Part shown: positions 2,774 to 60,281 of the stretch, piece after piece
Layout: each line of letters starts with the position of its first letter
Position numbering within the stretch: the first letter of the stretch is position 1
Source of the DNA: Leucoraja erinacea
Lineage: Eukaryota
Assembly: GCF_028641065.1 (NCBI RefSeq)
Contig: NC_073395.1
Span: 32,860,001 to 32,924,000, forward strand
Direction: 5' to 3'
DNA: 64,000 nt
Notes under the pieces: model-generated
Database searches by the model: none
What the model was told of the DNA's origin: nothing
Seen by the model: only the letters and a program-made list of their open reading frames with translations
Program-made: the position numbers and the translations under genes

Positions 2774-2920
2774 CTTCAGATGATGTTGTGATTTTAACAC
2801 TGGTCTTTGGTCCAGCTCCCACCACTGTCTCAGCAAATGCAAACACTTCATATTTTGTAAATGGTAGCAGGTTAGTAAAAATATATGCCATCTCTCTGGT
2901 GCTGTTCTGGGACATTTGCC
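2774..2920 (-). CDS. PTPRQ: PTPRQ exon, C-terminal half of an FN3 repeat
   Basis: 147 nt, phase 1-1, tttag/gtaac. Encodes QMSQNSTREMAYIFTNLLPFTKYEVFAFAETVVGAGPKTSVKITTSSE, like human [23 protein letters not shown]. Confidence 0.92.
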
Positions 2921-23900: not shown

Positions 23901-26900
23901 TACGGCATTAATTATGTCACTCCATTGTTTTGGGATGTGTGCTGAGATAGAGGGACCCCATGTCTCAGGAAAGCAAAGGTAGGCAGGATCATTGTTGCCA
24001 AGTACACTGTGAGCTTCGTGCTGGGTTTGGGATCTTGATCTTCAAACACTCTTTCCGTCAGATGATAATAGACTGCACTAACAATAACAAGGGAATGATT
24101 AATTTTGTCACTGATGACTTCCTTTGTTGAGTGTTTACTTCTCCAAATGGTTAGTAATCTACGTTTCCTGGGTCTCACCATGGACCTTTATTGATAGGGG
24201 TATATTGCAGAGGGGAGACACGTTGGTTATGACTTTTGATTTGTGCCTGCTCAGTGGCCCTCAAATGGACAATAGACAATAGGTGCAGGAGTAGGCCATT
24301 CGGCCCTTCGAGCCAGCACCGCCATTCAATGTGATCATGGCTGATCATCCCCAATCAGCCTTCTCCCCATATCCCCTGACTCCGCTATCTTTAAGAGCCC
24401 TATCTAGCTCTCTCTTGAAATGGTTGCATATCTAAGCAGACCCTTACCCTCCATGCCCTTATCATACAACATTTGGAAAATAACTTTGCATAAGTGATGG
24501 TAAAACAAATTCCCCAGGTTGTTTGACATCTGTCAGGATCTGTAAGCATGCTTAGTAGCCTCCCCATGCATGTTCACAAGTTCACCAGTTATAGAAGTAC
24601 AATTAGGCCATTTGGCCCATCAAGTGTACTCCGCCATTCAATCATAGTTGATCTCTGCCTACTAATACCATCTTCCTGCCTTCGCCCCATAACCCTTGAC
24701 ACCCATTCTAATCATGAATTTGTCTGTCTCTGCCTTCAAAATATCCACTGACTTAAGGGTAAGGGTAAGGGCTTTGAGGGTCGCTTACATACTGTTGCAC
24801 AATTATGCCTTGACTGTCACTGTCTGTTATCATTGTATGTATGCAAATTGCTGTGAAATTCAAATAAAAAGATTTAAATCAAAAATATCCACTGACTTGG
24901 CCTCCACAGCCCTCTGTGGCAATAAATTCCACAGATGAACTTCCCTCTGACTAAAGAAGTTCCTCCTCACCTCCTTTTTAAAAGAGTGCCCTTTAATTCT
25001 GAGGCTATGGCCTCTGGTCCTAGACTCTCCCACCAGTGGAAACATCCTTTCCACATCCACTCTATCTATGCCTTTCATTATTTTGTAAGTTTCAACGAGG
25101 TCCACCCTCAACCTTCTAAACTCCAGCGAGTAGAGGGCCAGTGCTGTCAAACGCTCATCATATGCTAATCTACTAATTTCTGGAATCATTCTTGTAAACC
25201 TCCTGTGGACCCTCTCCAGAGCCAACACATCCTTCCTCAGGATTTGGGACCCAAATTTGCTCACAATACTCCAAATGCGGCCTGACCAACACCTTATAGA
25301 GCCTCATCATTACATCACTGTTTTTGTATTCCTGTCCTCTTGATCCAAATGCTAGCATTGAATTTACCTTCCTTATGTGTTCCTTATCTATATTCATCAA
25401 AGATGGGAGGAGCAGAGTCTAATTTGAGGAAATAAGCTCCTGGCACCATGGTAAATGACTGTCCTTTGCAATTAAGTTTTGTAGTAAATTTTTAACAATC
25501 ACGTTGTGTGCTTCATAAGAGAATGTCTGGCTCACTAACTTTCACAAGCAGAATAAACTATAAAACCATTTTTTCCTGCAGATTTTATGACTATTTCAAT
25601 ATGCTACATTCAATAAAATTCTTAAAATCTTTACACAGCTGTTGTATCTTAAATCTTTGCAAAAAAAGCACCTATAGTTTCATTTAAAGTCAGTTGGAGC
25701 TAGTAGAAGTTGGCCGGACTTATTGATCATCACAAGTCCACTTACAAGTTTCATTCGTTGTAAATGATCTGCTGACAGACTTGCTAAACGATGACGAGAC
25801 TGAGGAGACGGTGGCAGTGTACTTTATACCTGGGGTAACATCAAAAAGGTCAGCCTGGAATAACACAAACACAAAATAAGCAATTCAATTGATATGAAAT
25901 TAAAATAAAAAAAGATCTTATTAAGCTTACATTCTTCATCTTTTCCTATCCAATTTCATAAGAATAATTTTCATTCTCTTAGTTGCAACTGCTTTCAGCT
26001 TACGGGAGCTCTCAGTTTCAATAGACATTTAACCAACTATGTAAAGTACAAATGAATTGCAGAACATGAAACAGATTGTTTAATTAAAAAGAGTACCTTT
26101 GTCCTTGCGGTCCCAAATATGAATGCCGTGAAAGATAAAATGAAGAGAAGCTTCATTATTGCATCTTACTTATCACCTCTGTTGGACAAATTCAGCCGTG
26201 CACTGCCGACCGGATTGAGATAGGAGTCATGTCATTAAACATTTAAAGTACTTACTGGCTAGGTACGTAATTAATATCATTGGCTGAATATTAGCACTCT
26301 GCTCTGTTACACTATACATGAATGGCTAGGAGATGTTTAGAACAAAGTAAATCTTAGGCCATACTCTGCTCATTTTGACAAAATCAATAAAACTGAGTGA
26401 GGCAAACAAATGTATGTTTAGGTGCAATTTTACCGCTGAACATAGATATACATAAAACTCTCTACTGTAGAAATTTATCACGCTCCACTAGTGATAGGCA
26501 TTGTGAAAGTCACACCTTGAAACTACCATCCCCCATGTTTGTGATATTAACAGAGCCTTGGTCAGGAATGAGATCCACTTTGTAATGAACATCATTTCCA
26601 GCGGGTCCTCTCCAATGTAAAGTAAATCCTCTGGCTGAAATATTTGAAACTTCCAACATTTGAGGGTTTTCATGCTCTTGAAAAAAAAAAGGAACATTTT
26701 ATTATAAGATTTAATCAATATGAAACAATTGTTTTGCAATGCAAAAAATATTAGTTAATTTCTTGCGCTGTTACCCAGAGAGAGTCAAGTTTATGTGGAC
26801 TCATCAGGTGTAGTTGCACGACAGATGAAAATCCGACCATGGTATGGAAACGTAGGGACCTTCAGGGCTCTGAATTTTACTGATCTGTGCCAGAATTACA

Positions 26901-29900
26901 AGATCACCTGGATAAATTTCAGATCATACCATGCCCCAGAGTCTCATTGCACAACTTTAAGACTGAAGAATCCTGTTGACCCAACCCAGAAAAGAGATGA
27001 AATGATCCTAACAACCCCTTTAATAAAGAGGCCACGTGGATAGGGAAGGTTTGGAGGAATATGGGCTAAACACAGGCAAGTGGGATTAGTTGTTTGTGTG
27101 CGATTACAAAGTCAAGAGTGAACCATTAGTCTTTTATTAAGATATAAAGGAGAGAGAAAATCATAAACAATCATGCATTTCAAAATCATCCAAGTTCTGC
27201 TTGCAGTAACAAAACCGACCGGTTGCCAAGGGCAGCCCAAAACCCGGACTGGATTACTAGTGGAATGTGTGGCATGCGTAATATGTGTAGTGGAGATTAC
27301 ATAAGCATGGATTAATATAGTTAATCTACACTAGTGTAGATGGATTACAGGATTGAAAAAATAATTTTGAATCAAATGGAAAATTGTCAACCAGAAACTA
27401 CGATTATTAGTTTCCCTGATCTTTGATCATCGTGAAGCCTTTGGACCTCCATCAGCCACTTATCGACTATTTAAAATCCCTCTGAAAGTCATTCCATTCC
27501 TATGATTCTACAAAATACTTGCTGTTTTCATTAGGTATCTCCAATTGAAAATCTCTACAGAGAATGTAGTGGCGACTCTCAGGACTCTCATGCCCAGGAC
27601 TATTGCACAAACCAGGCACGTGCCGTCAGGGTGGGCAAGGTAGGCACTGCCTACCCTGACTAAAATTATAACATAGTAATTACTAAATATAAATAGTAAA
27701 GGCGTGGGAGAATTATGGCTATCTAAGCGATCGATCTCTTACGTACGCACAATTCTCCGTGCCTTTCATCCCCAGCGCTTGCAACACTTGAAGATCTGTG
27801 CAGCCCACGTGCCGTCGTCGCTGCTTGAAGCTGTCAATGACAAGCGGGGCTGAAAGCAGCTGAAATTCTGCCTTTGCAGTACTGGGCATGTGCAGCAGTC
27901 TACTGCTTGCGCAGCGCCAGTTTCTTGGCGGGTTTTTCAAATATGGATTGCCATTATCTTAAGCGTATTTTAAGAAACAAAGAGAGAAGAATGGAGTTTG
28001 TGTAATGTGGTAAGTACATTTCTTGGTGCTATATGTTTTTAAATACCGTATTTCCCGGGGTGGGGCCCGGAAAGGGAGAGTTCCTTTCACAGCATTTGGA
28101 GTGTCTAGCCCGGGGTAAAGTTGCGGGGAGGGCAGGAGCATTGTGAGGGAGGGGGTCGGGATCATGCCAGTAACCCAATCGCGATGCTCCTTGCACAGAG
28201 CCACCGCATTGAGGCCGGGGAGGGAAGCAGCTCGTGTAGCTGCGAGCGGCCGCCGGGCCGGACAGCGGAACCGGCCGCCACCTCAGCTCCTTCTGCCGGC
28301 CCCCGTTCACCTCTGGCAGCTCTCCGTCTGAAAACCTCTCTCCTGCCACTCGCTGGCCTCACTCATGTCAGCCGCTTCCCGCAAATCCTTAAATCCCGAC
28401 GGCCCGATCAAGGGACCAATTGAGGTTACTTGGCTGTCGGAATTTAAGGATTTGCGGGAAGCGGCTGACATGAGTGAAGTCGGCGAGCGGCAGGTGAGAG
28501 GTGTTCATACGGAGAGCACTGCCAAAGGTGAGCGGGCCGGCAGTAGGTGCTGAAGTGGCGGCCGCTCACAGCCACCCGAGCTGCTTCTATCCCCGGCTAC
28601 AACGCGGTGGCTCTGCGTCCGGAGCGCTGCGACAGTGGTGAGTGAGTGAGTTACTGGCACTATCTCCGACCCCCCTCCTTCTCAACGCTCCTGCCCTCCC
28701 CGCAATTTTAACCCCTGGCCAGACTTTCCACACGCTGTGAAAGGAACTCTCCCCCCAACTGGTCACTTGAACTAGTATTATCATTCAATAAGATGACAAC
28801 TGATGGGTGCGCTCCCATTTTTCCCACCATCTCTCCACCTGCCATCATCCTTTACCCCCACCCATTCAGTAATTCAGAATGAAGGAGAATTGGAAGCCTT
28901 GGGCAAATTGAATTGTTACTGTCTTTATTTTTATTTTTTATTTTTACGGAGAGAACAATCTGCGCATGCGCGGTTTAAGTTATTTTTTAAAAAGCCGACT
29001 GACTGCCTACTACCCTGAGTAATTACTCACGGCACGTGCCTGGCACAAACCATTTGTTCGCTGACCTCCCTTTGTCTGGTACGTCAGTGAACATGTAAAC
29101 CACAGCAAGGTGCTGAAACAGGAGGAGGAGGAGAGAGAAGAGATGTCTCCATGGGAAATAATATCCACCCGGCTCATTCTGACATGAAGTCCCTGACCTA
29201 AACCAGGAATAGCGTGTGGTTTGATTTTGTTTTGATAAGTAGATCCTCACAAAAAACTACCAGCGTGTTAGAAAAATCATAATTCTCAGAACAGGGTAAG
29301 GATTGAATTGTCAACAGCTTTCAGGATGCCAATGGCGATAAACCACGAGTTCCTTCCTTCACAGAGAAGAGGACTCATGCACCAATTTTCATTTTCAAGC
29401 TATGGGTGTATCTCATGTCATATTGGCTGCAAAAATCAACTGATCAACTTTGTTGAATTCTTTGCCTTCCATGTCTTTGCCTATCTGGGCGCTCAGATGC
29501 AGCTTCGCTCTGTGGCTGTGCCCAGCCCTTCAAACCTACAAAAATAAACTAATTGATTGTAAATTGATTCAGGGCATTTGGTATGAAAGATTTGCTTTTT
29601 GCACAATGGACCTCTCTTGACGACGTGATTTCAGTAGCAGCACCTCAGAAATTCTTGTCAACTTTTCTGAAGTTATGAGAGAGGGTCATGAAAAATCTGA
29701 GAAAATACAGCATATCATTGGGTGGTTTAAACGGGCATCTGCAGTTCCTTCCTACACCATGTCTTTGGTCATTGCTTGGAGGATATAGCAGAATAAGAAT
29801 AATATTGAAAACTCTTACTTGTTTTTAATCTCTTTTGGATTCCTTCACTCGCATCCATGCCTTTAACTGTTTTTATTTGGAAAACGTACTCTATTCCTGG

Positions 29901-32900
29901 AATTAGATCATTGATTTTGATATTATTGCCTCGTAAAGTTGTTCTGTCTGTTGTTTCATTGATTCCTGGTGAGTAATAACTTAACTGTGTATAAAATAAA
30001 AAGTACAATTTGGGTCAATAACACTTTATTTTACCTGATGTAATGTAATTATAACAATATGATAAATGTTCGTCATTTCTGAAAATGCTTGAAATAAGTT
30101 AATTTGCTAAGCCTGTAAAAGAAAGTGGTACTTCCAAAATAACTTATAATAATTTTCTACATGGTGACTTGAGAAACTACCATGTAAGGTATTTAGCACA
30201 AAGTCCGAAAACAAGTCTACAAATAATGTTTATATTATAGTACAGTAGTTTCAGAAATGTTTATCACATAAACAGTAGGTTAAAATTAGAGATATTAACT
30301 GTATGAACAATTGGATATATATTAACAATATTAACTATTAGAGATATATATCTTTAGATTCTGTTTCTTCTTACTATGAAGTCATCTAAAATACCCTTCA
30401 GCTAATGGTACATAAATATGCTACTCACTTCAAGTGATCAACTGTTATCATGATAGGTAATAAGAGATTCAGTTATGAAATAAAACAAACACATTAAGAT
30501 TAATGGTAATTAAAATAATTAATTAATACATATAATGGTAAATTAGATATAAAAGCCACAATCAGTTGTATACTTGAAAAAACATCTACAGAACACCTAT
30601 TTAATTATTAGGACAACATTGCAACGTGGCTAAAGAAATATATTGTTCGATAATTAATTTTGAATGATAAGAAACTCAATCTAGGCCAGTGTAAACCCAC
30701 ATTGTTAGATGAGCCATATAATGATGCTTGTTCATTAAATATTAAAATATGGCTTCATTTCCACTGAAAGATCATCATTTGCTTATCACAGTCAGGCAAC
30801 ATTAACTTCACAACCATGAAACTGAAAACCCCACCTAGTAACCTGCTTTCCGTAGAAGAAGTTGAATTTCAAATATAAAAATGTAGCTGAATTTGACACG
30901 TCAAAGTTGATGCTTCACTTACCTCGAATATATCAAAATCCCCTCTTGGAAGCTTCCAATATAAGTATACAGTGTTCTCATCCAGTTCAACAAACTGCAA
31001 ATCTACTGGTGGTTCAGGATCTAGGGAATACATACAATGGCTTATTTTGATAACTTATGTATTTTTGTAGAATATTCCACAATATTTCCCAAAATGAATA
31101 TGAGCCTATAACAATGGTTATAGCTCCAGATATTCAAATATATGGAGCTTCAGATACTCAAATCAAATGGTCAATTGTACAACGTCAATTTTGTGATACT
31201 GATCCAGGGCCCGCACAGAAATAGGGATTGGTCTGATCGTGTTTAATCTGATCTACTGCTTGGCCTGGAAACAATGCTTATGGTTCCCAAGCATCTCCCA
31301 ATGCAAGCACAGTGGGCAATGCCCAACAAGGAGGCCTCCAATTGACACATGGCTGATGACAATTTGTGCTATCAAGACCCCATTTCACTGTTTTAAATAC
31401 CTCTGACGATCACAGCCAAAATTGATTTAAACAAGAAAACTTAAAGTATCAAAATTAATTAAAAGTGCATTAAGCTATTATTAATTAACTACAACTGCAA
31501 AATAAACAAAAGTAATCAAAAGCTTATCTAAACATATCTTGTTTATGAAGATTAGATCGCATCCAAGGACAAAAAGGCTAGCTGACAGAGAGTAAATTGG
31601 TTCGGGAAGGAAGGCACTATGGTGGAAGGCTTCACTTGGACTGGAGGCCTGCAGGAACTATACTTCAAGATTGGTGTGCAACCGTCCAGAGTGGTTTAAT
31701 AAAATCAGGATGGGAGACCCCTTCCACCCCTGCAACGGACTGTTCCAGCTGCGACGGTCAGGCAAACGCCTCCGTTGCCATGTGGTGAGAACGGAGAGGT
31801 TGAGAAGGAGTTTCTTCCCAGAGGCAATTCGGACTGTAAACACCTATCTCACCAGGGACTAACTCTACTGAACGTTTTTCCGTCCATTATTTATTATGTA
31901 AAAGAATATGTGTGTTATGATTGTGTTTATAATTTGTTTGGTTGTTTTGTTGTTTGTCTTTTGCACAAAGGTCCGCGAGCATTGCCACTTCATTTCACAT
32001 CTCGTATGTGTATGTGACAAATAAACTTGACTTGACTTGACTTGCATGGGTTCCAGAGAGTGCTAGCTGACTCCAGAGAAAATTGGCTTAATGGAAGGAA
32101 GGAAAGGGTGATGTGAGAAGGCTGGTTTTTGGACTGGAGGCCTGTGACTAGTAGTATGCTTCAGAGATTGGTGTTGGGCCCGTTGCTGTTTGTGGTTTAT
32201 ATCAATGACTTAGATGAGGATGTGGAAGACATGATTAGTAGGTTTGCAGATGAGTGGTATTGTAGATAGCGAAGATGGTTATCAAAAATTACAGTAGAAT
32301 CTTGATCGATGGACAGAGCAATGTGAATGGAGTTTAATGCAGATGAGTGTGAGGCGTTGCATTTTGGCAAGTCAAATCAGGATAGGACTTCACAATTAAT
32401 GGCAGAGCTCTGGTGAGTGTTGTAGAACAGAGGGATCTAGGAGCTAAGATACATAGTTCCTTGAAAGTGGTGCCACAGGTAAATAGGATGGTTAAGAATG
32501 TTTTCGGCACATTGGCCCTCATCCATCAGCATAATTAGTCCATAAGTTGGGATGTGATGTTACAGTTGTACAATAAATTGGTGAGGCCACATTTGGAATA
32601 TTGTAGGTACACAAAAATGCTGGAGAAACTCAGCGGGTGCAGCAGCATCTATGGAGCGAAGGAAATATGTAACGCTTCAGACTGTGTTGGAATTTTGGAA
32701 TATTGTGTTCAGTTTTGGTCACCCTGCTACAGAAAAGATAACATTAAGATGGAAAGAGATGGTTCTCATAGGATTTAACATTTAGCATTAAATCACATTA
32801 CTGGCATTGTGTACATGTACATAACAACTCAACGTACAGGTTATAACAATGTAGACTGATTATTAGACATTTTACTTTTGTAACAAAACTCACAGGTTGT

Positions 32901-53900: not shown

Positions 53901-56900
53901 ATAGGATGAATCCACACATTTTTTCCATGTTATGGGTATCAAGAACCAGAGGGCAGTGGTATAAGATTTAACAGGAACATGAGGGACAACTTTTCAGGGT
54001 AGTGGGTATATGAAATAAGCAACCAGAGGAAGTAGCTGAGGCAGGTACAATTAACAACATTTAAACGAGATTTGGACAGGTACTTGCATAGGAAAGGTCT
54101 AGAGCAGTGGTTCCCAACGTGGGGCGTACGCCCCACAGGGGGGCAATTTGATTTTTAAGGGGGGCAATTGAGCGCGACTGAGGTCTGGGTCCAAATTTTC
54201 GATTTTTATTTTTTAGGATTTTCCATCAGGTAAACATATGTGGTTTATGTTTCAGATATTATTTTGAGTAAATAATTTTTTTGGGGTAAAAAAGGTCTTT
54301 ATTGTGTAGTTATTACAACCAAGGTATTGGCGTTTTAAGCTTCTTCAGCTGAAACGGAGTTCACTTTTTAAATTATAAGAATTATATATCACCACATGGG
54401 GAGGGGGCATCAGGATTTTAGAGGTGATTAGGTGGGGCATGGCCAAAACAAGGTTGGGAACCACTGGTCTACAGGAATGGGCTAAATGCAGACAAATGGG
54501 ATTAGCTTAGATGAAGCATCTTGTTGGCCTTCGGCCCATGTTGTCCATGTTGTTTGACTATTATCAAATGCTCTGTTTTGATGTTGTCCTTTCTAAGTGT
54601 TGCCTTTGTATTAAATTATAAAAATAACAATATTTATTTTTTCAAATCAAATGTTTGTATACTTTGAACAGGGATGGTAAAGGTTGAAAATGTGATGATT
54701 TTCATAGTAGGCTTTTCCTAATTAGCTTCTATTGATTCTGCAAGCTGATCTGAATGTAACTGGAAGTACTCCCTTGACTAATTAACTTTGTCGATCTCCC
54801 ACGGAAAGGGAGGGATGTAAAGCAGCTGTCTGGAATATTTATTGCTTCAGTCAGGAAAACAAATTTAAGTTTGTGGAACATGACAACCTATAATATATCA
54901 CACAAAAATAAAATCTGCAATAGCTCTTTTCACACATGAACTACCTAATATAATGCAAAATCATACTTATTTATCTTATTGTTTAATAATCATTTTGTTT
55001 CTAATGAACTACCTAACATTTTCTTTAAAAATTGTGAAATTTGCTGCAATATTTATTTTTGATAAAAATTCTACACTCAAATCAATCATTAGATAAGGCG
55101 TTTGTCCTTTTCACAGAGGGAGACAACAGCTAAGTCTGATTTATCAGTTTTTGATACCTCTCTGGGGTTTTTCTCCAATGGACATCCTTCGTGCATGATC
55201 CTGTACACTGGTGACGTAACAATATTTATGAAATAACATAAGTTCCAACTTACTTCAATGTCATTTAGCCCAGTCCATAACATGCTGAAGTCATTCTGTG
55301 ACCTCAGGTGAGTAGATATAAACTGAAATTCCTCTTCGGTATTGATGTCAACAAGGTGGACGCCGTTAGTTGCTGACTTACAGAATTGAGAAGCATCTTT
55401 CCATTTCTTGCAGTCTTTTCTGATCCAGTAACAGCTATAGAATGATCCTATCCAGCCAGGAGGACATGGTGCTACCAAGGTAATTTCTGTGTTATTCATT
55501 AGTGCTCCAATAATAGAATTATAAACATTTTGTCTATTTGATACAATCTCTGCAAAATGAAGGCAAACATTTGCTTTTATATTTTTACGGTGCCATTAAC
55601 CATTCAATATTTGATCTATACTCCTAAACAAATACTTGCCGTTCAAGGGCTCTGCATTTATCTGTTGTACAGCGGCTAATCAATGATCATTGTACAAGGC
55701 CATAGCAGCAGAAAACCAAATATAATATCTTAATATTCTTCCAAAATCAACTCAAATGGCAGAACTATTTGTGCCAGATTAGGCAATCTGGGTGCAAACG
55801 GGGGGGGGGGGGGAAAGAAATGGGGTACAAGTACATAGAACATTGAAATCTCCAATTTAACTACCCCCCCCTCCTTGCACCTCCCTTTCTTTTCCCCACT
55901 CCCTCTCCTGTGCCTGACCTAGATTTGTGCCTAAATCTCCCTCTCCCCTTCCACCCCCATTCCTTCCACTAGCTTTACAATTCTCAACTCTTCAATCCTT
56001 TCTCACATCATCTGTCTTTTCATCTCTGTCCTTCGTCAAAACCACTACCTCCCCTTACCTGTATCCACCTATTACTTGCTGGGCTTTGTCCTCTCCTCCA
56101 GCTTTCTTCCCCCACCCCCCCTCTCCCCCTATCTAGTCAGACTGAAGAAGGGTCCTGACCAAAAACTTCACCTATCCATATTCTCCAGAGATGCTGCCTG
56201 ATCCATTGAGTTACTCCAGCACTTCATGTCTTTTTTAATCGATATATTAGGTTTGAGCATAAAAATTCTCTCCAGCATATTAGTTAGATACGTAAGACAA
56301 GCTTTTTTGTTATGCAAAATAGAATGCTTGTTTTTAAAATTCTTTAATTTGAAACATATGTTAATTGATTAGTCAACCTATCAGAATATTTCAATTTTAG
56401 TTTAAATAGCAAAAATGTTTCCTACAAAACAATCGGTTTTCAAAATAGAATGATCAATTTCTTATAAATTCAACATGATTGTCCATTCATATACATCAGT
56501 TTATCGTACCTGTTTCAATAATTATATTAAATACTTGTGTGAAAGTGAGTCCAATATGATGTGTTTGCTTGAATTCCAAGGAGAAATTGTACAAAGTTCC
56601 AGGCTTTAATTCATTCCACACGTAATTGTTTGTAGTAGCTGGTATATGGTATGAAGTGAAATTTAGGCTTATTGTGGTTATAAATCTTCCAAACCCAAAT
56701 TCACTCCAATCAAATGAAGCAGTAGTTGTTGAAATGGTTGTTTTAAAGCCAGCTTCTCCATACAAACCTGAAATATATATATATATATATTCCTCTCACC
56801 AAATCAATAATTGACATTTTTGAAGAAATCAAATTTAAAATATTTTTCTTCTACATTTACTCTATAAGTTAATGTCACACCATCATATAATCTTGAACCA

Positions 56901-59900
56901 TAAATGATTTGGATTGCCAATAACCTAACAAATAACCTAATTAAAAATATACATTTTCCATTACTACAAGAATAATTACTCAATAGCAAAAAATGTCATG
57001 CTAAATAGTTTTTTTGTTTTATATAATGGTAAATAAAAGCATGCCGTAAAAAACTCATACTTACAAGTAGTAAATGATTTGCTGTCTTGGATTTTCCCAC
57101 TGGTCACTGATTTTATAATAAAATAATAGCTAATATCTTCCTGAAGGTCATCCAAACTGACACTTGATCCCTGAACAGATCTCTGAACAGCAGGAAGTAA
57201 GTAGCAATAGTAGTTATAAAGAGAGAGTCCTTAGCTTTGGGGGAGACTATCCTTAAAAAGATCTTGTTTAATATTTGATGAGCATGAAATAATAAATGAA
57301 CTCATTTTGACTCCAATGTATACACAATTGTTCACCTTTATTTGATTCCAATCTAAACACATTTTTCATTTAACATTAATTTTGGTAACTTACATCTTTT
57401 AATTGTGCATTTTTTAGTGACAATGTATTTGATGTATCATAATATCTACTTTTGTTTTAACTTGATAGTCAATAACCAAGCTAAATCCAGAAGAAAACAT
57501 TGCTCTCCGAATTTAAAGTGAAATGATGTGATTTTCTTCCTGGAATATGTGTGCTCCTGTATAAGCATCTCACAATCTCAAACCAAAATAAGATGTAATT
57601 ATGGACACAAAGAGCTGGAGTGGGACACGCAGCGTCTCTGAAGAGAAGGAATGGGTGATGTTTCGGGTCGAGGCCCTTCTTCAGACCAGAGTCTCGGTCA
57701 CGACCCGAAACGTCACCCATCCCTTCTCTCCAGAGATGCTGCATACCCTGCAGATTTACTCCAGTTTTTTGTGTTTATCTTTGGTTTAAATCCGCATCAG
57801 CAGTTCCTTCCTACACATAAGATGTAATTATGTTACTGAACTCACCACAGTACTGGAAAAATGTGGAGACAATGTTCCATATGTGATCAAGTAACTGTCT
57901 GCATGTTTTCCATCTGGGAAATGATTCCATTCGACCAACGCAGTTAGTGCCGATCTATTCGTAGCCAACTGGCAATTTAAGCAATCCGTCACCTGAAAAA
58001 TATGTGTTATTTGGATCTTTATCAGGTTACGCAGTGATATTTGACTATAATATACTCTTTTTCAACTATCTCTAATTTTGTATGATTACTATTATTTTTG
58101 TACCATTACAACTGCATGTACTGTTTCTCTCTTCTTCTACTAGTGAAGCTGGATGATAAGACATGAAATGGTGCCTGATCCCATTTCATTCCACACACAT
58201 TTCAAATTGAAATGAATGAAATTGTGGTATAGTGTGCAAGACCATCTGCGTACGAGGTCCACGTAGCTCAAAAATAGATTTAAATTCTTCTCCAGAGCAT
58301 TCAATGGAGGTGCTTTTTAGCCTGAAATTATTTTGAGTGGCTCTTCACCAGAACCAGGAAGCTGTCCACACCTTTCTTGAAGTGATTTATGTGTACACAC
58401 TTGAATGGTTTCAGGAAACATTACCACATTTGGCATCTTGCTTCTCATGATCATTATCTTCCAGATCCTTGTTTATGCTGCAGGTTTCTTGGTTCCGTAT
58501 TAACAATATTCAAATATTCTAAAAGAACGTCCTCCAGCAGTCCATTCCATAATCTTTCAGTGGTTATTTAGGAATAGCTGTGCTGCAGTCCCATTTTGGA
58601 CATGTCCCATTCCGGCATGCTGGATTCATTGAGCTTTACTGTATTTTGAGCTAAGATTTTGAGGATAGGCTATAAAGTCTGTATTGGAAAAGCTTGAAAT
58701 TCAAATATGGATTCATATCAGCCCAAGCCACACAAGGAATATTCGTACTCTTGGTTGAATACTGGGTCCCACTGCATCAGTATTAATATCTCTATCAATG
58801 TCACGGGTAAATCATCCTCAATGCTAATCCTAGTTTTGGTTCACCAATCCTATTAATTAATCTGCTGTCGCATTCCATTTAATATTTAATATTCAATATT
58901 GTAATAATATCAGGACGGGAGACTAGCTCTGCACTGTTCCATCATAGGAAGTGCAGATATGGGTCCAAGAATGGTCAGTGATTATTCAGAAGCTTTTCAC
59001 GGCTAATTTTTCAAATTAACTGTTATTTCGGGTAAAGCAATAATCTGCTATCCAAATCTTTAGAAATTTTGCTGTGCATCATCTGGCCATCAGCCTTTCC
59101 CCATAGGTGCTAAATCCCATGCTCTCTTCAATTTCATTCTAGATTAGTACAGGTGTCAGAGGTTATGGGGAGCAGGCAGAAGAATGGGGTTAGGAGGGAG
59201 AGATAGATCAGCCATGATTGAATGGCGGAGTAGACTTGATGGGGCAAATTCTATTCCGATCACATGACCTTAAGACCTTATGACCTCTTTGAGACAATGG
59301 AACCCCGTATTCTGTACTCACTTGAAACTCAGCAAGTTTCTGGAAAAGTTGTTTGGGTCCCTGATTAGTAAACAGGGTGGATGTGTAGGGACAAGTGTAC
59401 TGTTGCAGGGGAAAGTGCCTGCGGTGGGTGAGAGAGGAGAGAACCAGGGGTTTATGGAGAATGTGGTCTTTGCGGAAAGCAGATCAGTGTAGGGAGGGGG
59501 CCAATGTGATGGGTGGTCGCATTGCAGCTAAGGGAAATGGTGAAGAATGATATGTTAGATGTGAAGGCTGGTGGAATGAAAGGTTTGAACCAGGGGTCTC
59601 TATCTGTCTGTGGAGAGGTAGAGTGATAACAGATGTAGAGGAAGGCAACATCAATCTACATCATGGAATCCTTATTTACTGAAGAAAGTAGATATTTTCG
59701 ATGTCCTGGAGTGAAAAGCCTCATCTCGACAACACATGGAGTCAGGGTGAGAAACTCTAGGAAGGGATGATGCCAGGAAGATGGGACAGGAAGAGGTGTA
59801 GTCCAGTTAGCTCTGTGACTTAGTGTGCTTGGAGTAAACGTAGGGGAGAGTTTGTTTTCTGAGATGAAGACTGAGAGCTGAAGAAAGGGGACAGAGGTGT

Positions 59901-60281
59901 CAGAATTGGTCCAAGTGAATTTGAGGGCTCCTTACAACAGACAGGATGGGAAAGGATACATTCTCAGTAACTGTGGAGTCGGTCTGTTTGTAGCACCTTA
60001 CAGGATGGGAAGCGGTTGATGTCACAAACATCCAATTAGTTCAGTATATCGAAAAATTACCTTGAAACTAATATTCTTTGCAGATTTATTTTTAACATGA
60101 GCAGTACAAAATGACATAATCCATTATACATCTCACAACCATGTTAATATTCAATACATAATAATTAGAATCAAAAGTACATACTCTATGATCTTACCTG
60201 AAATGCACTCCTTAGAATATTTAAGAATATACAAATATATATGGCTCCATCCAATTTGGTACTTCTTTTATTCTGCTCCAT
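2774..60281 (-). CDS. PTPRQ: PTPRQ (R3 receptor-type phosphatase / phosphatidylinositol phosphatase), 5' multi-exon portion including a putative long N-terminal extension; gene continues beyond the left edge
   Basis: Chain of GT-AG exons with matching phases. Exons 26156..2774 translate to segments matching the recalled human PTPRQ N-terminus (e.g. WNIPSQTNGRILSYMVEYKEVCP, VAAENSAGIG, PEEPPQN..WDPPPTITGRLFYRVEL). Confidence 0.85.
3547..3675 (-). CDS. PTPRQ: PTPRQ exon, N-terminal half of an FN3 repeat
   Basis: 129 nt, phase 1-1, ttgcag/gtaagt. Encodes PEEPPQNLIVSKIASRSFMVNWDPPPTITGRLFYRVELVNPL. Confidence 0.93.
5996..6233 (-). CDS. PTPRQ: PTPRQ exon, Ser/Thr/Pro-rich insert plus FN3 C-terminal strands
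   Basis: 238 nt, phase 0-1, gtag/gtgagt. Encodes DGSPTGTTPGSLTSSSP...VVGHLKSYTTYLCEVSAFTKEGEG...FRTPEW. Confidence 0.9.
6469..6778. mobile_element. PIF/Harbinger-type MITE
   Basis: About 45-bp TIRs agggcctgtcccactgtacgaggtaattcaagag.../...gtacagtgggacagaccct; TTA TSD. Confidence 0.85.
7090..7405 (-). mobile_element. HE1/V-SINE-like element
   Basis: Reverse-orientation homolog of 53025-53255; a further degraded copy lies at about 7720-8030. Confidence 0.72.
8180..8712 (-). mobile_element. Penelope-like 3' fragment
   Basis: Same GIY-YIG C-terminal coding remnant and 3' repeat as 23010-23780. Confidence 0.8.
8954..9153 (-). CDS. PTPRQ: PTPRQ exon, FN3 N-terminal part (not in ORF track)
   Basis: 200 nt, phase 1-0, cctag/gtaagt. 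Encodes PGQVLSLTAKAVNHSAANVTWFLPKRPNGRITHFSIIIKSVRTGQISKNMSVNGETLFPSTLLQCE. Confidence 0.93.
9750..10245 (-). mobile_element. Penelope-like 3' fragment
   Basis: ORF remnant VAKHFNSPSHSHTDLSALDLLHCQSEATNKLEEQHLIF. Confidence 0.8.
12289..12358 (-). CDS. PTPRQ: PTPRQ small exon, end of an FN3 repeat
   Basis: 70 nt, phase 0-1, ttag/gtgagt. Encodes VAAENSAGIGAFSSFRHVVTAET. Confidence 0.92.
13155..13655 (+). mobile_element. GC-rich retroelement-like 3' fragment
   Basis: CpG-rich core, G-rich tract, atgtgacaataaag(attca)n tail. Confidence 0.6.
14000..14290 (-). mobile_element. CR1 LINE 3' end
   Basis: TRGHSLRIRGKPFRTETRKHFFSQ and (ctattgt)n tail; the same tail occurs at 24268-24420. Confidence 0.85.
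14911..15137 (-). CDS. PTPRQ: PTPRQ exon (mammalian exon 3 equivalent), FN3
   Basis: 227 nt, phase 1-0, aacag/gtaaga. Encodes AVSPDALAVGLIGATAIMLTWNIPSQTNGRILSYMVEYKEVCP...LKPGTTYKIR. Confidence 0.94.
15490..15820 (+). mobile_element. Old L2-like RT remnant
   Basis: TKTALL...LLVLPKLTAALDTTDHTI resembles L2 TETALL..LVLLDLSAAFDTVDH. Confidence 0.6.
16120..16455 (-). mobile_element. tRNA-derived SINE with L2-like tail
   Basis: A/B-box-like tggtgcaatgggctaag and ggttcgaatccc, core gtccttgggcaagacactt, (att)n tail. Confidence 0.8.
16537..16916. mobile_element. PIF/Harbinger-type MITE, related to 6469-6778
   Basis: Long TIRs agggcctgtcccacttt.../...aaagtgggacaggccct; TTA/TAA flanks. Confidence 0.85.
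17409..18635 (+). CDS. DIRS ORF1 (gag-like)
   Basis: Open ~408-aa ORF from ATG 17409 directly before pol. Low-complexity N-terminus, then PQNCEAL..VN..IW and LLFG motifs typical of DIRS ORF1. Confidence 0.85.
   Translation: MASRKRPARRTACPTPPEEGSISGRQPPAAEELFRRSRTPEAEPLPVPPITTPRTGRKATRKSDRPVISDSSEERERSPPVKRGDSRISCMRQLLEQMLDEEMRARHLQGGRALASSKPSPHPSVPSLFEGSKGGQDWAGLSQGQADDSTSMPGELEKEELLGVVSRYAVPPTAGMILPPRMAASIINLSNKPLQEKVVQAALDTYTAPQNCEALRVKTVNGQIWNQLGQQIRTQEVKMQRILKLHTAAITAFARSVGDAELSTPQQDVLALMCNTQYELNNLRRENIRPALNPKYAGLCKAPAPEREALLFGADLAKKLKELEEAAKPVGLMRAAPGPSRVKTPSWQHASASTSRYRAGESLVTASHYPQSSFLERGPGRSRGKIRRPTAAPTRTPSGQTHRKRSQK
18638..20131 (+). pseudogene. DIRS pol (RT-RNase H-methyltransferase-like), disabled by a stop at 19184-19186 and loss of the RT catalytic core
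   Basis: RT start (FVSNIFL..KK.GGCRIIIDL, ASIDIKDAYY) present; LPxGL and YxDD absent. RNase H (TDASALGWG, INYLE, DNTTA, NSVAD) and MT-like (DLFAS, YAFPPF, VVPDW) motifs follow in the same frame. Confidence 0.9.
19993..21102 (+). CDS. DIRS tyrosine recombinase (true start uncertain)
   Basis: Intact ORF with catalytic R (AQRVQSL), HSTR, AGW and Y (TFQKFY) motifs; overlaps the 3' end of pol. Confidence 0.93.
   Translation: MVPNFPRHGGRVTYGFSQPPTIIDSPSIWHKPSMPPKIEPPGFQILNRPYQGLGLSERTITTMSASLRVSTKKQYLTYIRKWEQYCLNAGTSYKTASIKDVLEFLGHLHHDLKMSYSAINAARSALSAYLMPSGHHNIGSHPLVIKLLKGIYNTKPPTPRYTHVWDVSVVLQHLRGWPPVGSLSLEQSTIKTLMLMALVSAQRVQSLHQLRLDYMVTTPDSITFTMPGLVKQSRPGISNSPLIFRAYPPEPRLCVVTHLHDYIDTTQTLRGSEKALWVSHRKPFGRVTSQTISRWLKQVLNTAGINTNVFKSHSTRAASTSAAIRMQVPIDHILSTAGWSRESTFQKFYHKPLMEKDVFAAKILESAKL
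21265..21376 (+). repeat. DIRS internal complementary region (ICR)
   Basis: First part is the reverse complement of the element's 5' end (about 17228-17263). Second part is the reverse complement of the 3' end (about 21513-21591, one mismatch). Confidence 0.93.
21483..21591 (+). repeat. DIRS right inverted terminal repeat plus 3' extension
   Basis: atgccgcgcctgcgcgctgggtgggttcttcacgta is the reverse complement of about 17255-17290. Confidence 0.9.
21600..21837. mobile_element. Short Penelope-derived insertion with inverted structure
   Basis: Same repeat family in both orientations; right flank taattaatcatgtaag duplicates the reconstructed left flank. Confidence 0.75.
23010..23780 (-). mobile_element. 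Penelope-like element fragment with GIY-YIG endonuclease remnant
   Basis: YCIRCSR..LLY..RLDDRFADHL..VAKHFNSPSHS..LEEQLLIFCLGSLQP, followed by the family 3' repeat. Confidence 0.85.
24570..25372 (-). mobile_element. CR1 LINE 3' fragment
   Basis: LYKVLVRPHLEYC, LERVHRRFTRMIP, YSLEFRRLR, TRGHSLRIKG, RRNFFSQR..LWN. Confidence 0.9.
25746..25854 (-). CDS. PTPRQ: PTPRQ exon (mammalian exon 2 equivalent), C-terminal half FN3
   Basis: 109 nt, phase 0-1, ttccag/gtaagt. Encodes ADLFDVTPGIKYTATVSSVSSSFSKSVSRSFTTNET, like human VDVSNVVPGTRYDITISSIS. Confidence 0.92.
26097..26156 (-). CDS. PTPRQ: PTPRQ signal-peptide exon of the short (mammalian-type) isoform
   Basis: ATG at 26156, MKLLFILSFTAFIFGTARTK, then phase-0 donor gtactc. 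Resembles human MDFLIIFLLLFIGTSETQ. Confidence 0.85.
26516..26676 (-). CDS. PTPRQ: Linking exon of the long isoform: N-terminal half FN3, phase 0 into PTPRQ exon 2
   Basis: 161 nt, phase 1-0, polyT-caag acceptor, gtgtga donor. Encodes HENPQMLEVSNISARGFTLHWRGPAGNDVHYKVDLIPDQGSVNITNMGDGSFK. Confidence 0.82.
27613..29042. mobile_element. Non-autonomous hAT-type transposon with a large internal inverted repeat
   Basis: TIR caggcacgtgccgt / acggcacgtgcctg; perfect 8-bp TSD gcacaaac (27605-27612, 29043-29050). Confidence 0.88.
29819..29984 (-). CDS. FN3 C-terminal half exon (PTPRQ N-terminal extension)
   Basis: 166 nt, phase 0-1, acacag/gtaaga. Encodes LSYYSPGINETTDRTTLRGNNIKINDLIPGIEYVFQIKTVKGMDASEGIQKRLKT. 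Confidence 0.88.
30923..31020 (-). CDS. FN3 N-terminal half exon (extension)
   Basis: 98 nt, phase 1-0, ccctag/gtaagt. Encodes PEPPVDLQFVELDENTVYLYWKLPRGDFDIFE. Confidence 0.88.
31690..32045 (+). mobile_element. Rex1/Babar LINE 3' fragment
   Basis: DPFHPCNGLFQLRRSGKRLR...RLRRSFFPEAIR; tgacaaataaa(cttga)n tail. Confidence 0.8.
32060..32760 (+). mobile_element. Degraded CR1 RT fragment with nested Penelope repeat
   Basis: VLGPLLFVVYINDLD..FAD-like and LYNKLVRPHLEYC motifs. Confidence 0.75.
32894..33000 (-). CDS. FN3 C-terminal half exon (extension)
   Basis: 107 nt, phase 2-1, gtgcag/gtgagt. Encodes TYHYDKLMPGIAYSITIETTSATKKSYPTTITITT. Confidence 0.87.
33590..34215 (-). mobile_element. Penelope-like 3' fragment
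   Basis: Same GIY-YIG C-terminal segment and 3' repeat. Confidence 0.75.
34878..35980 (+). mobile_element. GC-rich non-autonomous retroelement-like insertion carrying the minisatellite
   Basis: T-rich tract, poly-G, CpG-rich core, (caaatt)n tail; abrupt composition change from the intron. Confidence 0.6.
35274..35690. repeat. 21-bp GC-rich minisatellite
   Basis: Unit gcgggactcggagctggggca; about a dozen near-perfect consecutive copies plus degenerate flanking units. Confidence 0.95.
36490..36872 (-). mobile_element. Penelope-like 3' fragment with intact hammerhead-like motif
   Basis: PVAQHFNSPSHSVSDLSVLGLLHGHSEQHRKLEEQHLIFRLGSLHPGGMNIEFS, then CTGAAGAAGGGTTTCGGCCCGAAACGTT. Confidence 0.85.
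36553..36586 (-). ncRNA. Minimal hammerhead-ribozyme-like motif (Penelope-associated)
   Basis: CUGAAGA, extra A, GGG..CCC stem II, GAAA, CG, UH. Confidence 0.6.
37182..37335 (-). CDS. FN3 N-terminal half exon (extension)
   Basis: 154 nt, phase 1-2, ttttag/gtaaga. Encodes PSPVEYLNYNKTSDSITLSWPEAVYVFDGYNLTVSSKSMHHVVEIPFTRS. Confidence 0.88.
38881..39010 (-). CDS. FN3 C-terminal half exon (extension)
   Basis: 130 nt, phase 0-1, tttcag/gtaagg. Encodes VQKVKREHIVFTKLTPGKLYNISLRTEKENYQDSIPVSQLIRT. Confidence 0.89.
39268..39398 (-). CDS. FN3 N-terminal half exon (extension)
   Basis: 131 nt, phase 1-0, tatag/gtaacc. Encodes LGPPTNLREGKVTETSLELLWDKAEGHFNQYEVICINCDRQLV. Confidence 0.89.
42384..42835. 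repeat. Tandem duplication (~205 bp) including an exon 3' end and its donor
   Basis: 42384-42588 is nearly identical to 42627-42835 (4-bp indel). Confidence 0.92.
42773..43033 (-). CDS. Single-exon FN3 repeat (extension)
   Basis: 261 nt, phase 1-1, tttcag/gtaagt. Encodes PLPVVIAFPIDIQTHSTALYVVMP...IEKLTPGEEYKFAVHSSSG...VKT. Confidence 0.88.
43420..43799. mobile_element. PIF/Harbinger-type MITE
   Basis: TIRs agcccctgtcccactt.../...aagtgggacaggggct; TAA TSD on both sides. Confidence 0.85.
44082..44903 (-). mobile_element. GC-rich non-autonomous retroelement-like insertion
   Basis: Same layout as 34878-35980; aatgacaattaaa(tcttgta)n tail; possible gaataca TSD. Confidence 0.6.
45523..45976. 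mobile_element. Solo LTR (Gypsy-like)
   Basis: Termini tatcag...ctgaca (TG..CA with one change); 5-bp TSD atacg; no internal ORF. Confidence 0.75.
46710..47420 (-). mobile_element. L2 LINE 3' fragment
   Basis: FISSRLDHCNSL, LQLVQNAAAR, LASLHWLPV, GDRAFAV..LWNSIP; (ttgac)n tail. Confidence 0.9.
47864..48136 (-). CDS. Single-exon FN3 repeat (extension)
   Basis: 273 nt, phase 1-1, cctag/gtaagt. Encodes PSPPASIYIDNADVWENTMIVHWEPP...MIPGATYDIEVMAVRSGKRS. Confidence 0.9.
48413..48549. mobile_element. Short Penelope-derived inverted insertion next to an exon donor
   Basis: 12-bp TSD ttgaaaatagtg; internal inverted repeat. Confidence 0.75.
48572..48856 (-). CDS. Single-exon FN3 repeat (extension)
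   Basis: 285 nt, phase 1-1, aatag/gtacag. Encodes PNPPQNLTLGELTSSEIQLLWGPP...LQNLRPFRSYEIYIQAVT. Confidence 0.9.
48875..50010 (-). mobile_element. Degraded Rex1/Babar LINE with nested Penelope repeat
   Basis: KEMIVDFRK, ESVLTGC...YG, PGHSLFSLLLSGKR..LKNSFFP motifs. Confidence 0.8.
50444..50734 (-). CDS. Single-exon FN3 repeat (extension)
   Basis: 291 nt, phase 1-1, tttcag/gtaagt. Encodes LILPKTIKLKSEDVRENEATIIWD...ISELKPGHHYYFALM. Confidence 0.88.
51575..51870 (+). mobile_element. CR1/L2-group LINE 3' end
   Basis: YSNSFLPRTIKAWNSL motif and (aagaacc)-like tail. Confidence 0.6.
52165..52520 (-). mobile_element. Penelope-like 3' fragment
   Basis: HFIFCLGSLQPAGMNLDFSHF remnant plus 3' repeat. 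Confidence 0.78.
52600..52780 (-). CDS. C-type lectin domain, C-terminal exon (extension)
   Basis: 181 nt, phase 0-1, tctcag/gtaatt. Encodes IENELQWTDKS...DSDCYAL...LFCFLALPYICEHE (CTLD motifs W-x-D, C, C-x6-YICE). Confidence 0.88.
53025..53255 (+). mobile_element. HE1/V-SINE-like element (interrupted by a Penelope repeat)
   Basis: tRNA-like head, then V-domain-like tgcacattctccctgtgacc..ggtttcctctgggtgctccagttt..ccacacatcccaaag. Confidence 0.75.
53640..54560 (+). mobile_element. Degraded CR1 3' fragment (interrupted by hAT MITE)
   Basis: LYK.LV..HLEFCVQFW.P and later CR1 C-terminal motifs. Confidence 0.75.
54105..54466. mobile_element. hAT/Charlie-like MITE nested in a CR1 fragment
   Basis: TIR cagtggttcccaac / gttgggaaccactg; 8-bp TSD gtctagag / gtctacag. 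Confidence 0.85.
55254..55549 (-). CDS. C-type lectin domain, N-terminal exon (extension); alternative in-frame acceptor possible at 55471
   Basis: 296 nt, phase 1-0, ttgcag/gtaagt. Encodes CPPGWIGSFYSCYWI...WKDASQFC...HLVDINTEEEFQFI...LWTGLND. Confidence 0.88.
55850..56235 (+). mobile_element. Penelope-like 3' fragment
   Basis: Pyrimidine-rich tract followed by ctgaagaagggtcctgaccaaaaac and the family tail. Confidence 0.7.
56510..56767 (-). CDS. Divergent FN3 exon (extension)
   Basis: 258 nt, phase 1-1, tttcag/gtacga. Encodes LYGEAGFKTTISTTTASFDWS...WNELKPGTLYNFSLEF. Confidence 0.85.
57065..57182 (-). CDS. FN3-like C-terminal half exon (extension)
   Basis: 118 nt, phase 0-1, gttcag/gtaagt. 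Encodes RSVQGSSVSLDDLQEDISYYFIIKSVTSGKIQDSKSFTT. Confidence 0.8.
57604..57816. mobile_element. Short Penelope-derived insertion with inverted structure
   Basis: Two oppositely oriented copies of the 3' repeat; 16-bp TSD ataagatgtaattatg. Confidence 0.8.
57846..57992 (-). CDS. FN3-like N-terminal half exon (extension)
   Basis: 147 nt, phase 0-0, tttcag/gtgagt. Encodes VTDCLNCQLATNRSALTALVEWNHFPDGKHADSYLITYGTLSPHFSSTV. Confidence 0.8.
58145..58790 (-). mobile_element. Highly degraded Gypsy integrase remnant
   Basis: FKSIFELRGPRTQMVLHTIPQFHSFQFEMCVE*NGIRHHF.SYHPAS resembles the integrase core IF..G.P..IVSDNGPQF.S.EF....NGI.H....YHPAS. Confidence 0.55.
60198..60281 (-). CDS. Putative first coding exon of the long isoform (signal peptide)
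   Basis: gacATGG Kozak context with an upstream in-frame stop. Encodes MEQNKRSTKLDGAIYICIFLNILRSAFQ, then donor CAG/gtaaga in phase 0 matching the next exon. Confidence 0.72.

Follow-up and report, generated by a model that had tools for sequence, protein, structure and literature searches.

The stretch analyzed here (the window) comprises 64,000 nucleotides of the Leucoraja erinacea genome (contig NC_073395.1, positions 32,860,001 to 32,924,000) and carries, on its minus strand, the 5′ part of the receptor phosphatase gene PTPRQ and, upstream of it, a long chain of further coding exons (Table 1). The sequence-only reading of this DNA had proposed that these 17 exons extend PTPRQ into a much longer, lectin-tipped protein. 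After three-frame reading of the minus strand and scripted exon assembly, the chain was rebuilt as 17 exons running from 60281 to 26516, followed by the exon at 25854–25746. All 17 introns had GT...AG ends, the spliced frame was free of stops, and the phases agreed throughout; one junction (37182 to 33000) is in phase 2, and that between 26516 and 25854 is in phase 0, just as had been described. The extension encodes a leader, two fibronectin type III (FN3) domains, a domain of the C-type lectin-like kind (CTLD), seven more FN3 domains and the first half of a tenth. Its last exon ended in phase 0 without a stop, and no transmembrane segment was apparent, the top 19-residue hydropathy (1.64) lying inside the CTLD core, as stated earlier for this exon. 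Every domain of the extension aligned in order with the sturgeon, caecilian, emu and cattle proteins at 26–57% identity, and this conserved order across vertebrates excludes a chance origin of the open chain. The CTLD exon had one match in the skate genome among 20 candidates scored.

The length of the extension had to be revised. With the exon 5 acceptor at 55471 the chain comprises 3063 nt (1021 aa); an in-frame AG further upstream, at 55549, adds 78 nt and gives 3141 nt, from which we infer that the previously proposed 3141 nt (about 1047 aa) came from the latter site. The spacing between the FN3-2 motif and the CTLD was 33 residues in 106 of the 108 orthologues in which it was measurable (13 of 121 were not), and in the skate it was 33 with acceptor 55471 and 59 with acceptor 55549. 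Because the orthologue spacing matches 33 and not 59, acceptor 55471 is favored as the better supported main form of exon 5. The 55549 site was rejected as the main form on this spacing, not on RNA; its pyrimidine tract is the better of the two (13 of 20 versus 9 of 20). A long extension stood, probably of 3063 nt rather than 3141 nt.

The leader encoded by exon 1 is a probable signal peptide. At its start (60281–60255) it is approximately nine residues longer than the leaders of the bamboo shark and bony vertebrates; the orthologous start methionine seems to be aligned with a leucine codon in the skate, the upstream ATG being used instead. A 247-bp tandem duplication at 42384–42835 (98% match), either recent or an assembly artefact, repeats the final 60 nt of exon 10 together with its donor. 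This copy (42585–42526) is preceded by an AG and its inclusion would preserve the frame, but it has nearly no pyrimidine tract.

PTPRQ continues past the start of the window, on the same contig and strand, to a phosphatase with a WPE loop approximately 82–90 kb further on. There is a single PTP domain with WPE instead of WPD, and the exons carrying the WPE and catalytic motifs were 88–98% identical to the thorny skate (Amblyraja radiata) RefSeq protein XP_032894276.1. On the other side, OTOGL-like exons lie upstream on the same strand, the last of them approximately 3.1 kb beyond the window end (by match to the OTOGL-like half of an alligator model, see below), and the upstream neighbor is presumably OTOGL. 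Human PTPRQ and OTOGL are adjacent (PMC5993672).

The junction between the two sets of exons falls within a domain. Exon 17 and PTPRQ exon 2 scored 24.2 bits on the FN3 profile when joined, versus 14.5 and 7.6 bits apart, and by this profile they are two halves of one FN3 domain. The same exon chain joined to PTPRQ was found in XP_032894276.1 (3324 aa), which differed from the skate chain at 28 of 1057 positions in a gapless alignment (97.4% identity) and in which a Pfam scan placed Lectin_C at 224–333, 21 fn3 stretches and a phosphatase domain. An early one-exon homologue search, limited to proteins of up to 2000 aa, had found one protein. A search with the caecilian extension returned 183 proteins of 1982–6309 aa, and among the 120 of them listed nearly all were named PTPRQ, from sturgeon, bichir, tarpon, amphibians, turtles, birds, squamates, a marsupial and laurasiatherian mammals. 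In a set of 124 long models, the CTLD was present in 121, the alignment ran across the junction in all 124, the phosphatase was present in 119 and all three features were present in 117; the set was picked by length (1982–6309 aa) and similarity to the extension and is thus biased toward joined models. Three human entries named "PTPRQ, partial" (KAI2567173-5) also read across the same junction. They cover approximately the last three FN3 domains of the extension, starting at bovine residue ~785–792, and contain no CTLD. The gene of the tammar wallaby has both a long (3022 aa) and a short (2301 aa) isoform. The split FN3 domain, the thorny skate model, the long vertebrate models and the human partial entries together support the proposed single long PTPRQ, and comparison makes us confident that 26516 is spliced to 25854 in the skate.

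The alternative that the upstream exons form a separate secreted CTLD/FN3 gene (of the kind annotated as "tenascin-like" or "fibronectin-like") beside canonical PTPRQ draws on the way the region is annotated, being split by RefSeq in L. erinacea and in many other species. In addition, the terminal exon of the split Leucoraja model (42150–42098) exists in the window, and the intron at 26515–25855 contains one AATAAA/ATTAAA hexamer (26084). That hexamer, however, falls right at the start of the intron in the short PTPRQ form described below, and the exon chain stops in the middle of a domain that PTPRQ exon 2 completes. Moreover, 46 hand-picked short upstream models had 31 different end positions, with at most four at one place and with unrelated tails; such scattered ends mean that there is no shared terminal exon, and the short models look like truncated annotation, not like a real last exon. 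With the human partial entries spanning the junction as well, we regard a separate gene as very improbable. The exon at 42150–42095 has a good acceptor and a stop, and is either a real early end that would yield a secreted fragment or a closure made by the gene predictor.

Several observations nevertheless weigh against a single long gene. RefSeq divides the region in L. erinacea itself into at least two models (XP_055506752.1 and XP_055506905.1), whose proteins show no difference from the window in the exons that match. The RNA data weigh on neither side: exon 17 had no reads in any of four raw RNA runs (tissue unspecified; 5–25% of each run read), which came from four studies, were four of 24 listed and were mapped on 25600–33100. 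The depth was zero in all four runs over exons 14, 15 and 17, as it was over the greater part of the short form's first exon; one of the four gave 0.25–0.49x around exon 2, and nearly all mapped reads were repeats. A run search listed no RNA run covering 25740–26690. All long orthologues are automated models, in which errors could be common via homology transfer. An alligator model (5721 aa) fuses OTOGL-like sequence to PTPRQ, which makes over-joining possible at this very locus. This fusion, in which the PTPRQ leader is buried inside, is probably a prediction artefact (a similar predicted OTOGL–PTPRQ fusion is mentioned in human, PMC5993672), and it means that automated joins are not proof. 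Finally, a mass of 275 kDa is given for the hair-cell antigen, nearer to the short form (PMC9900141). Taking both sides together, we consider it likely that the locus holds one PTPRQ gene with two first exons, giving a long CTLD-bearing form and a short form.

In each of the four runs, short interspersed repeats at 29724–29757, 31700–32000 and 32550–32750 attracted RNA reads of other origin by the hundred; exon 16 ends approximately 60 nt away from one of these repeats.

The short form has its own leader exon (26156–26097), similar in position and leader to marsupial short isoforms and to human NP_001138498.1 (leader as printed in the supplement of PMC5336234). Canonical human PTPRQ (NP_001138498.1, 2299 aa; DFNB84A/DFNA73) shares with the skate gene the WPE-loop phosphatase, the OTOGL-like neighbor, the short leader exon and exon 2, but lacks the 1021-aa extension of the skate long form. 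In the canonical protein, the 36 residues that follow the leader make up half an FN3 domain, the other half being the last upstream exon. Beginning with half a domain thus marks the canonical human protein as an internally started form. We propose that the gene has two promoters and yields two receptors, one long and one short, that share the phosphatase; the internal promoter, located before 26156, would give the familiar form of ~2300 aa, whose start falls midway through an FN3 domain. Since the short leader resembles those of the marsupial and human short forms both in its location and in its sequence, both starts are probably old and were presumably present in the jawed-vertebrate ancestor. 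Two first exons may offer a simple basis for the multiple PTPRQ isoforms reportedly found on hair cells (from the title of Nayak et al. 2011). They could also explain a band of >250 kDa in human kidney (PMC5547938).

As for the CTLD, the sequence-only reading had announced a signal peptide, a C-type lectin and about ten FN3 domains; the leader, the CTLD fold and 9.5 FN3 domains were upheld, whereas a sugar-binding lectin was not. The domain is also not terminal, as two FN3 domains precede it, so that "lectin-tipped" is inappropriate for its position. In XP_032894276.1 it scored 40.8 bits against Pfam Lectin_C (cut-off 22.6), and it has the six cysteines of the long CTLD form, retained in 120–121 of 121 orthologues, and a WIGL-like core. 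Its conservation equals that of the core FN3 domains (47% identity to cattle versus 39–57%). AlphaFold modeling of the first four domains from a 33-sequence alignment gave confident seven-strand FN3-1, FN3-2 and FN3-3 and, as a point against the assignment, a low-confidence CTLD with a predicted local distance difference test score (pLDDT) below 50 over most of its length; Foldseek with this model returned, among the matches listed, FN3 arrays only.

By sequence, the closest solved structures were CTLDs of the mannose-receptor family (MRC1, LY75, MRC2, PLA2R; E 4.6e-22). This match, the fold signature and the conservation of D273 (114/121), E277 (121/121), N301 (119/121) and D304 (120/121), which we take, by analogy with mannose-binding protein, to form structural calcium site 1, would suit a genuine calcium-dependent lectin with a hold on glycans in the stereociliary coat or in the otolithic or cupular matrix. 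The sugar site itself speaks otherwise. By alignment, none of the motifs EPN, QPD and WND was present in any of the 121 orthologous CTLDs; the EPN/QPD place holds L/I-P-x and the WND place mostly F/Y-T-G, chiefly F-T-G. In alignment with mannose receptor CTLD2, the domain has L or I at the motif glutamate and a hydrophobic-T-G triplet at the W-x-D motif. The sugar-site loop contains, furthermore, a conserved N-x-S/T sequon (N in 119/121, S/T at 303 in 120/121). In contrast to the mannose-receptor family, the long form of PTPRQ has a single CTLD inside an FN3 array and no sugar motifs. A true lectin appears quite unlikely on these grounds. The replaced EPN/QPD and WND positions, the sequon in the loop and the retained calcium-site positions suggest instead that the CTLD probably binds protein rather than sugar and would be a calcium-stabilized protein-binding module.

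PTPRQ is a component of hair-bundle shaft connectors whose structural versus enzymatic role is unsettled (PMC9900141, PMC4281357). Whether it forms links itself, and what its ligand is, are left open in these papers, and phosphoinositide phosphatase activity and hair-bundle localization are known in chick, mouse and human (PMC9900141, PMC5005036). The CTLD, kept from skates to cattle without a sugar site, offers a concrete candidate for a ligand-binding module that is missing from the usual description of PTPRQ. An FN3 domain is about 3.5 nm long, and the 9.5 FN3 domains of the extension would thus add a reach of ~35 nm, the CTLD lying close to its end. On the stereocilia of hair cells, or at other apical surfaces, the long form may serve as an extended, ligand-bearing link or coat element, the short form being a ligand-less version with the same enzyme. 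That the long upstream isoform is real and functional is almost certain in our judgment; on its role as a ligand-bearing link or coat protein our opinion is evenly balanced. We hold as rather improbable the wider proposal that in most vertebrates the shaft connectors or the coat of the stereocilia are built by the long form, with the CTLD as cross-linking element, that the mouse and human reference proteins are truncated derivatives, and that the upstream exons are still expressed, wholly or in part, in the human inner ear, unsolved PTPRQ deafness alleles then being located in exons that the reference transcript does not cover. For a lateral-line or electroreceptor role no evidence was met, ptprq not being mentioned in any of the 15 literature matches listed.

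The long form with a common domain order occurs in both cartilaginous and bony vertebrates; it is therefore no younger than the jawed vertebrates and nothing peculiar to the skate. The suggestion of an ancestral architecture was borne out in this way; the idea that the form is peculiar to the species and absent from mammals was not, as cattle, whale, dog, bat, camel, sheep, pig and Tasmanian devil models have it. The bony vertebrates compared have one additional FN3 domain before the junction domain, which the skate and the zebra shark lack. Three tblastn queries for it in the intron at 29818–26677 gave no credible match (best E 2.7), and two of the human partial entries skip this domain.

Upstream models with leader and CTLD were found in chimpanzee, mangabey, macaques, squirrel monkey and mouse lemur. 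A different course of events, in which the long receptor coexists with soluble CTLD–FN3 fragments made by early polyadenylation or shedding and the long frame has been broken in some lineages (great apes, perhaps rodents) with only pieces left, finds several points of contact with these data. The chimpanzee and human upstream models both end at bovine residue 585, in FN3-5, after a deletion shared with mangabey; no primate or rodent was named among the 120 listed of the 183 long matches and no rodent among 110 shorter matches; and an ectodomain-only PTPRQ band has been reported in human cerebrospinal fluid (PMC5547938). Against this, the mangabey model reads on to bovine residue 959 and that of squirrel monkey to 835, and the absences among long models are read from 120 of 183 matches in a word-based search that can miss relatives. 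We therefore consider fragments with lineage loss doubtful as the general explanation; it would, in any case, be compatible with a long form in the skate. The models give hints of a broken long frame in apes, and the missing rodent names are a weak indication of loss in rodents. No human-labelled protein spanning the CTLD was seen in the homologue searches. Compared with those of cattle and squirrel monkey, the human, chimpanzee and mangabey models carry this short FN3-5 deletion, and the human and chimpanzee models end right after it. The primate remnants suggest that the OTOGL–PTPRQ interval is worth attention in unsolved hearing loss.

The long form is not new as such. The sequence-only reading had allowed that it might already exist as an automated gene model, and long RefSeq PTPRQ models with the same exon chain or domain order are indeed available (Amblyraja XP_032894276.1, Stegostoma XP_048405542.2, Microcaecilia XP_030070441.1, and those of birds, reptiles, cattle, whales and dog); all are automated predictions, and those of bony vertebrates have one FN3 domain more than those of the skate and the zebra shark. 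A 2004 Fugu survey (Zelensky and Gready, PMC514892) lists "PTP-GMC1" in group U of its CTLD-containing proteins, and rPTP-GMC1 is an alias of PTPRQ (PMC13536820). Like the skate long form, the Fugu model is thus a PTPRQ gene model with a CTLD, but it takes up a single table row in the group of lowest prediction quality, the name occurring once, undiscussed, in the main text. The claim of novelty has to be given up in view of these records. Schraders et al. 2010 reportedly put forward additional PTPRQ exons, lacking from NM_001145026.1, in the interval from OTOGL to the reference transcript (PMC5993672); these are possible counterparts of the skate upstream exons. Tables of chick stereocilia proteomics list PTPRQ at the protein level only (PMC5005036, supplements). 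The ectodomain of the R3 family is described as FN3-only (PMC10815196, PMC5336234), and the supplement of PMC5336234 does not contain the word "lectin". The short form fits this definition; the long form departs from it through the CTLD. No study of a CTLD-bearing PTPRQ was found in the open-access literature, most matches being judged by their listing entry, and long PTPRQ is known as an automated model and apparently functionally unstudied. For the skate genome the discovery is small, the same protein being already in RefSeq for the sister skate and many vertebrates; its yield here is that a one-gene reading corrects a split annotation.

A longer isoform of PTPRB, for its part, carries an N-terminal ricin-type lectin domain; no such domain was among the 18 Pfam families listed for XP_032894276.1.

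Table 1. Coding exons of the long and short forms of PTPRQ in the window, with the evidence for each.
Feature	Position	Strand	Evidence
Exon 1, ATG and 28-aa leader, phase 0	60198..60281	-	N-terminus identical to XP_032894276.1; hydrophobic core at residues 12-23
Exon 2, first part of FN3-1	57846..57992	-	Assembly; seven-strand domain in AlphaFold model
Exon 3, second part of FN3-1	57065..57182	-	Assembly; AlphaFold model
Exon 4, FN3-2	56510..56767	-	Weak fn3 match, E 0.024; AlphaFold model
Exon 5	55254..55471	-	Pfam Lectin_C 26.5 bits, cut-off 22.6; acceptor choice from orthologue spacing
Exon 6, second part of CTLD, degenerate sugar-site loop	52600..52780	-	Assembly; CTLD alignments
Exon 7, FN3-3	50444..50734	-	Pfam fn3 scan; AlphaFold model
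Exon 8, FN3-4	48572..48856	-	fn3 E 8.6e-15
Exon 9, FN3-5	47864..48136	-	fn3 E 2.4e-06
Exon 10, FN3-6	42773..43033	-	fn3 E 3.2e-06
Exon 11, first part of FN3-7	39268..39398	-	fn3 scan; assembly
Exon 12, second part of FN3-7	38881..39010	-	fn3 scan; assembly
Exon 13, first part of FN3-8, phase-2 end	37182..37335	-	fn3 scan; assembly
Exon 14, second part of FN3-8	32894..33000	-	Assembly; tblastn
Exon 15, first part of FN3-9	30923..31020	-	fn3 scan; assembly
Exon 16, second part of FN3-9	29819..29984	-	fn3 scan; assembly
Exon 17, first half of FN3-10, phase-0 end	26516..26676	-	Matches FN3 profile positions 4-43 of 93
Alternative first coding exon of short form, 60 nt, 20-aa leader, phase 0	26097..26156	-	Assembly; lies between exon 17 and canonical exon 2
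Shared exon (canonical exon 2), second half of FN3-10	25746..25854	-	Matches FN3 profile positions 62-86
Six further canonical PTPRQ ectodomain exons	2775..15141	-	Approximate tblastn spans 15141-14908, 12358-12287, 9151-8954, 6233-5997, 3676-3542, 2966-2775

Two further elements lie in introns. The element at 17367–21102, on the plus strand, has overlapping long open reading frames, the last of which encodes a tyrosine recombinase (Phage_integrase, E 1.1e-07), the other three having no Pfam match at E 0.001; its layout presumably corresponds to that of a DIRS-type retrotransposon. The intron between exons 13 and 14 contains a GC-rich 21-bp tandem repeat (19.6 copies, 35261–35667) that yields long spurious open reading frames.

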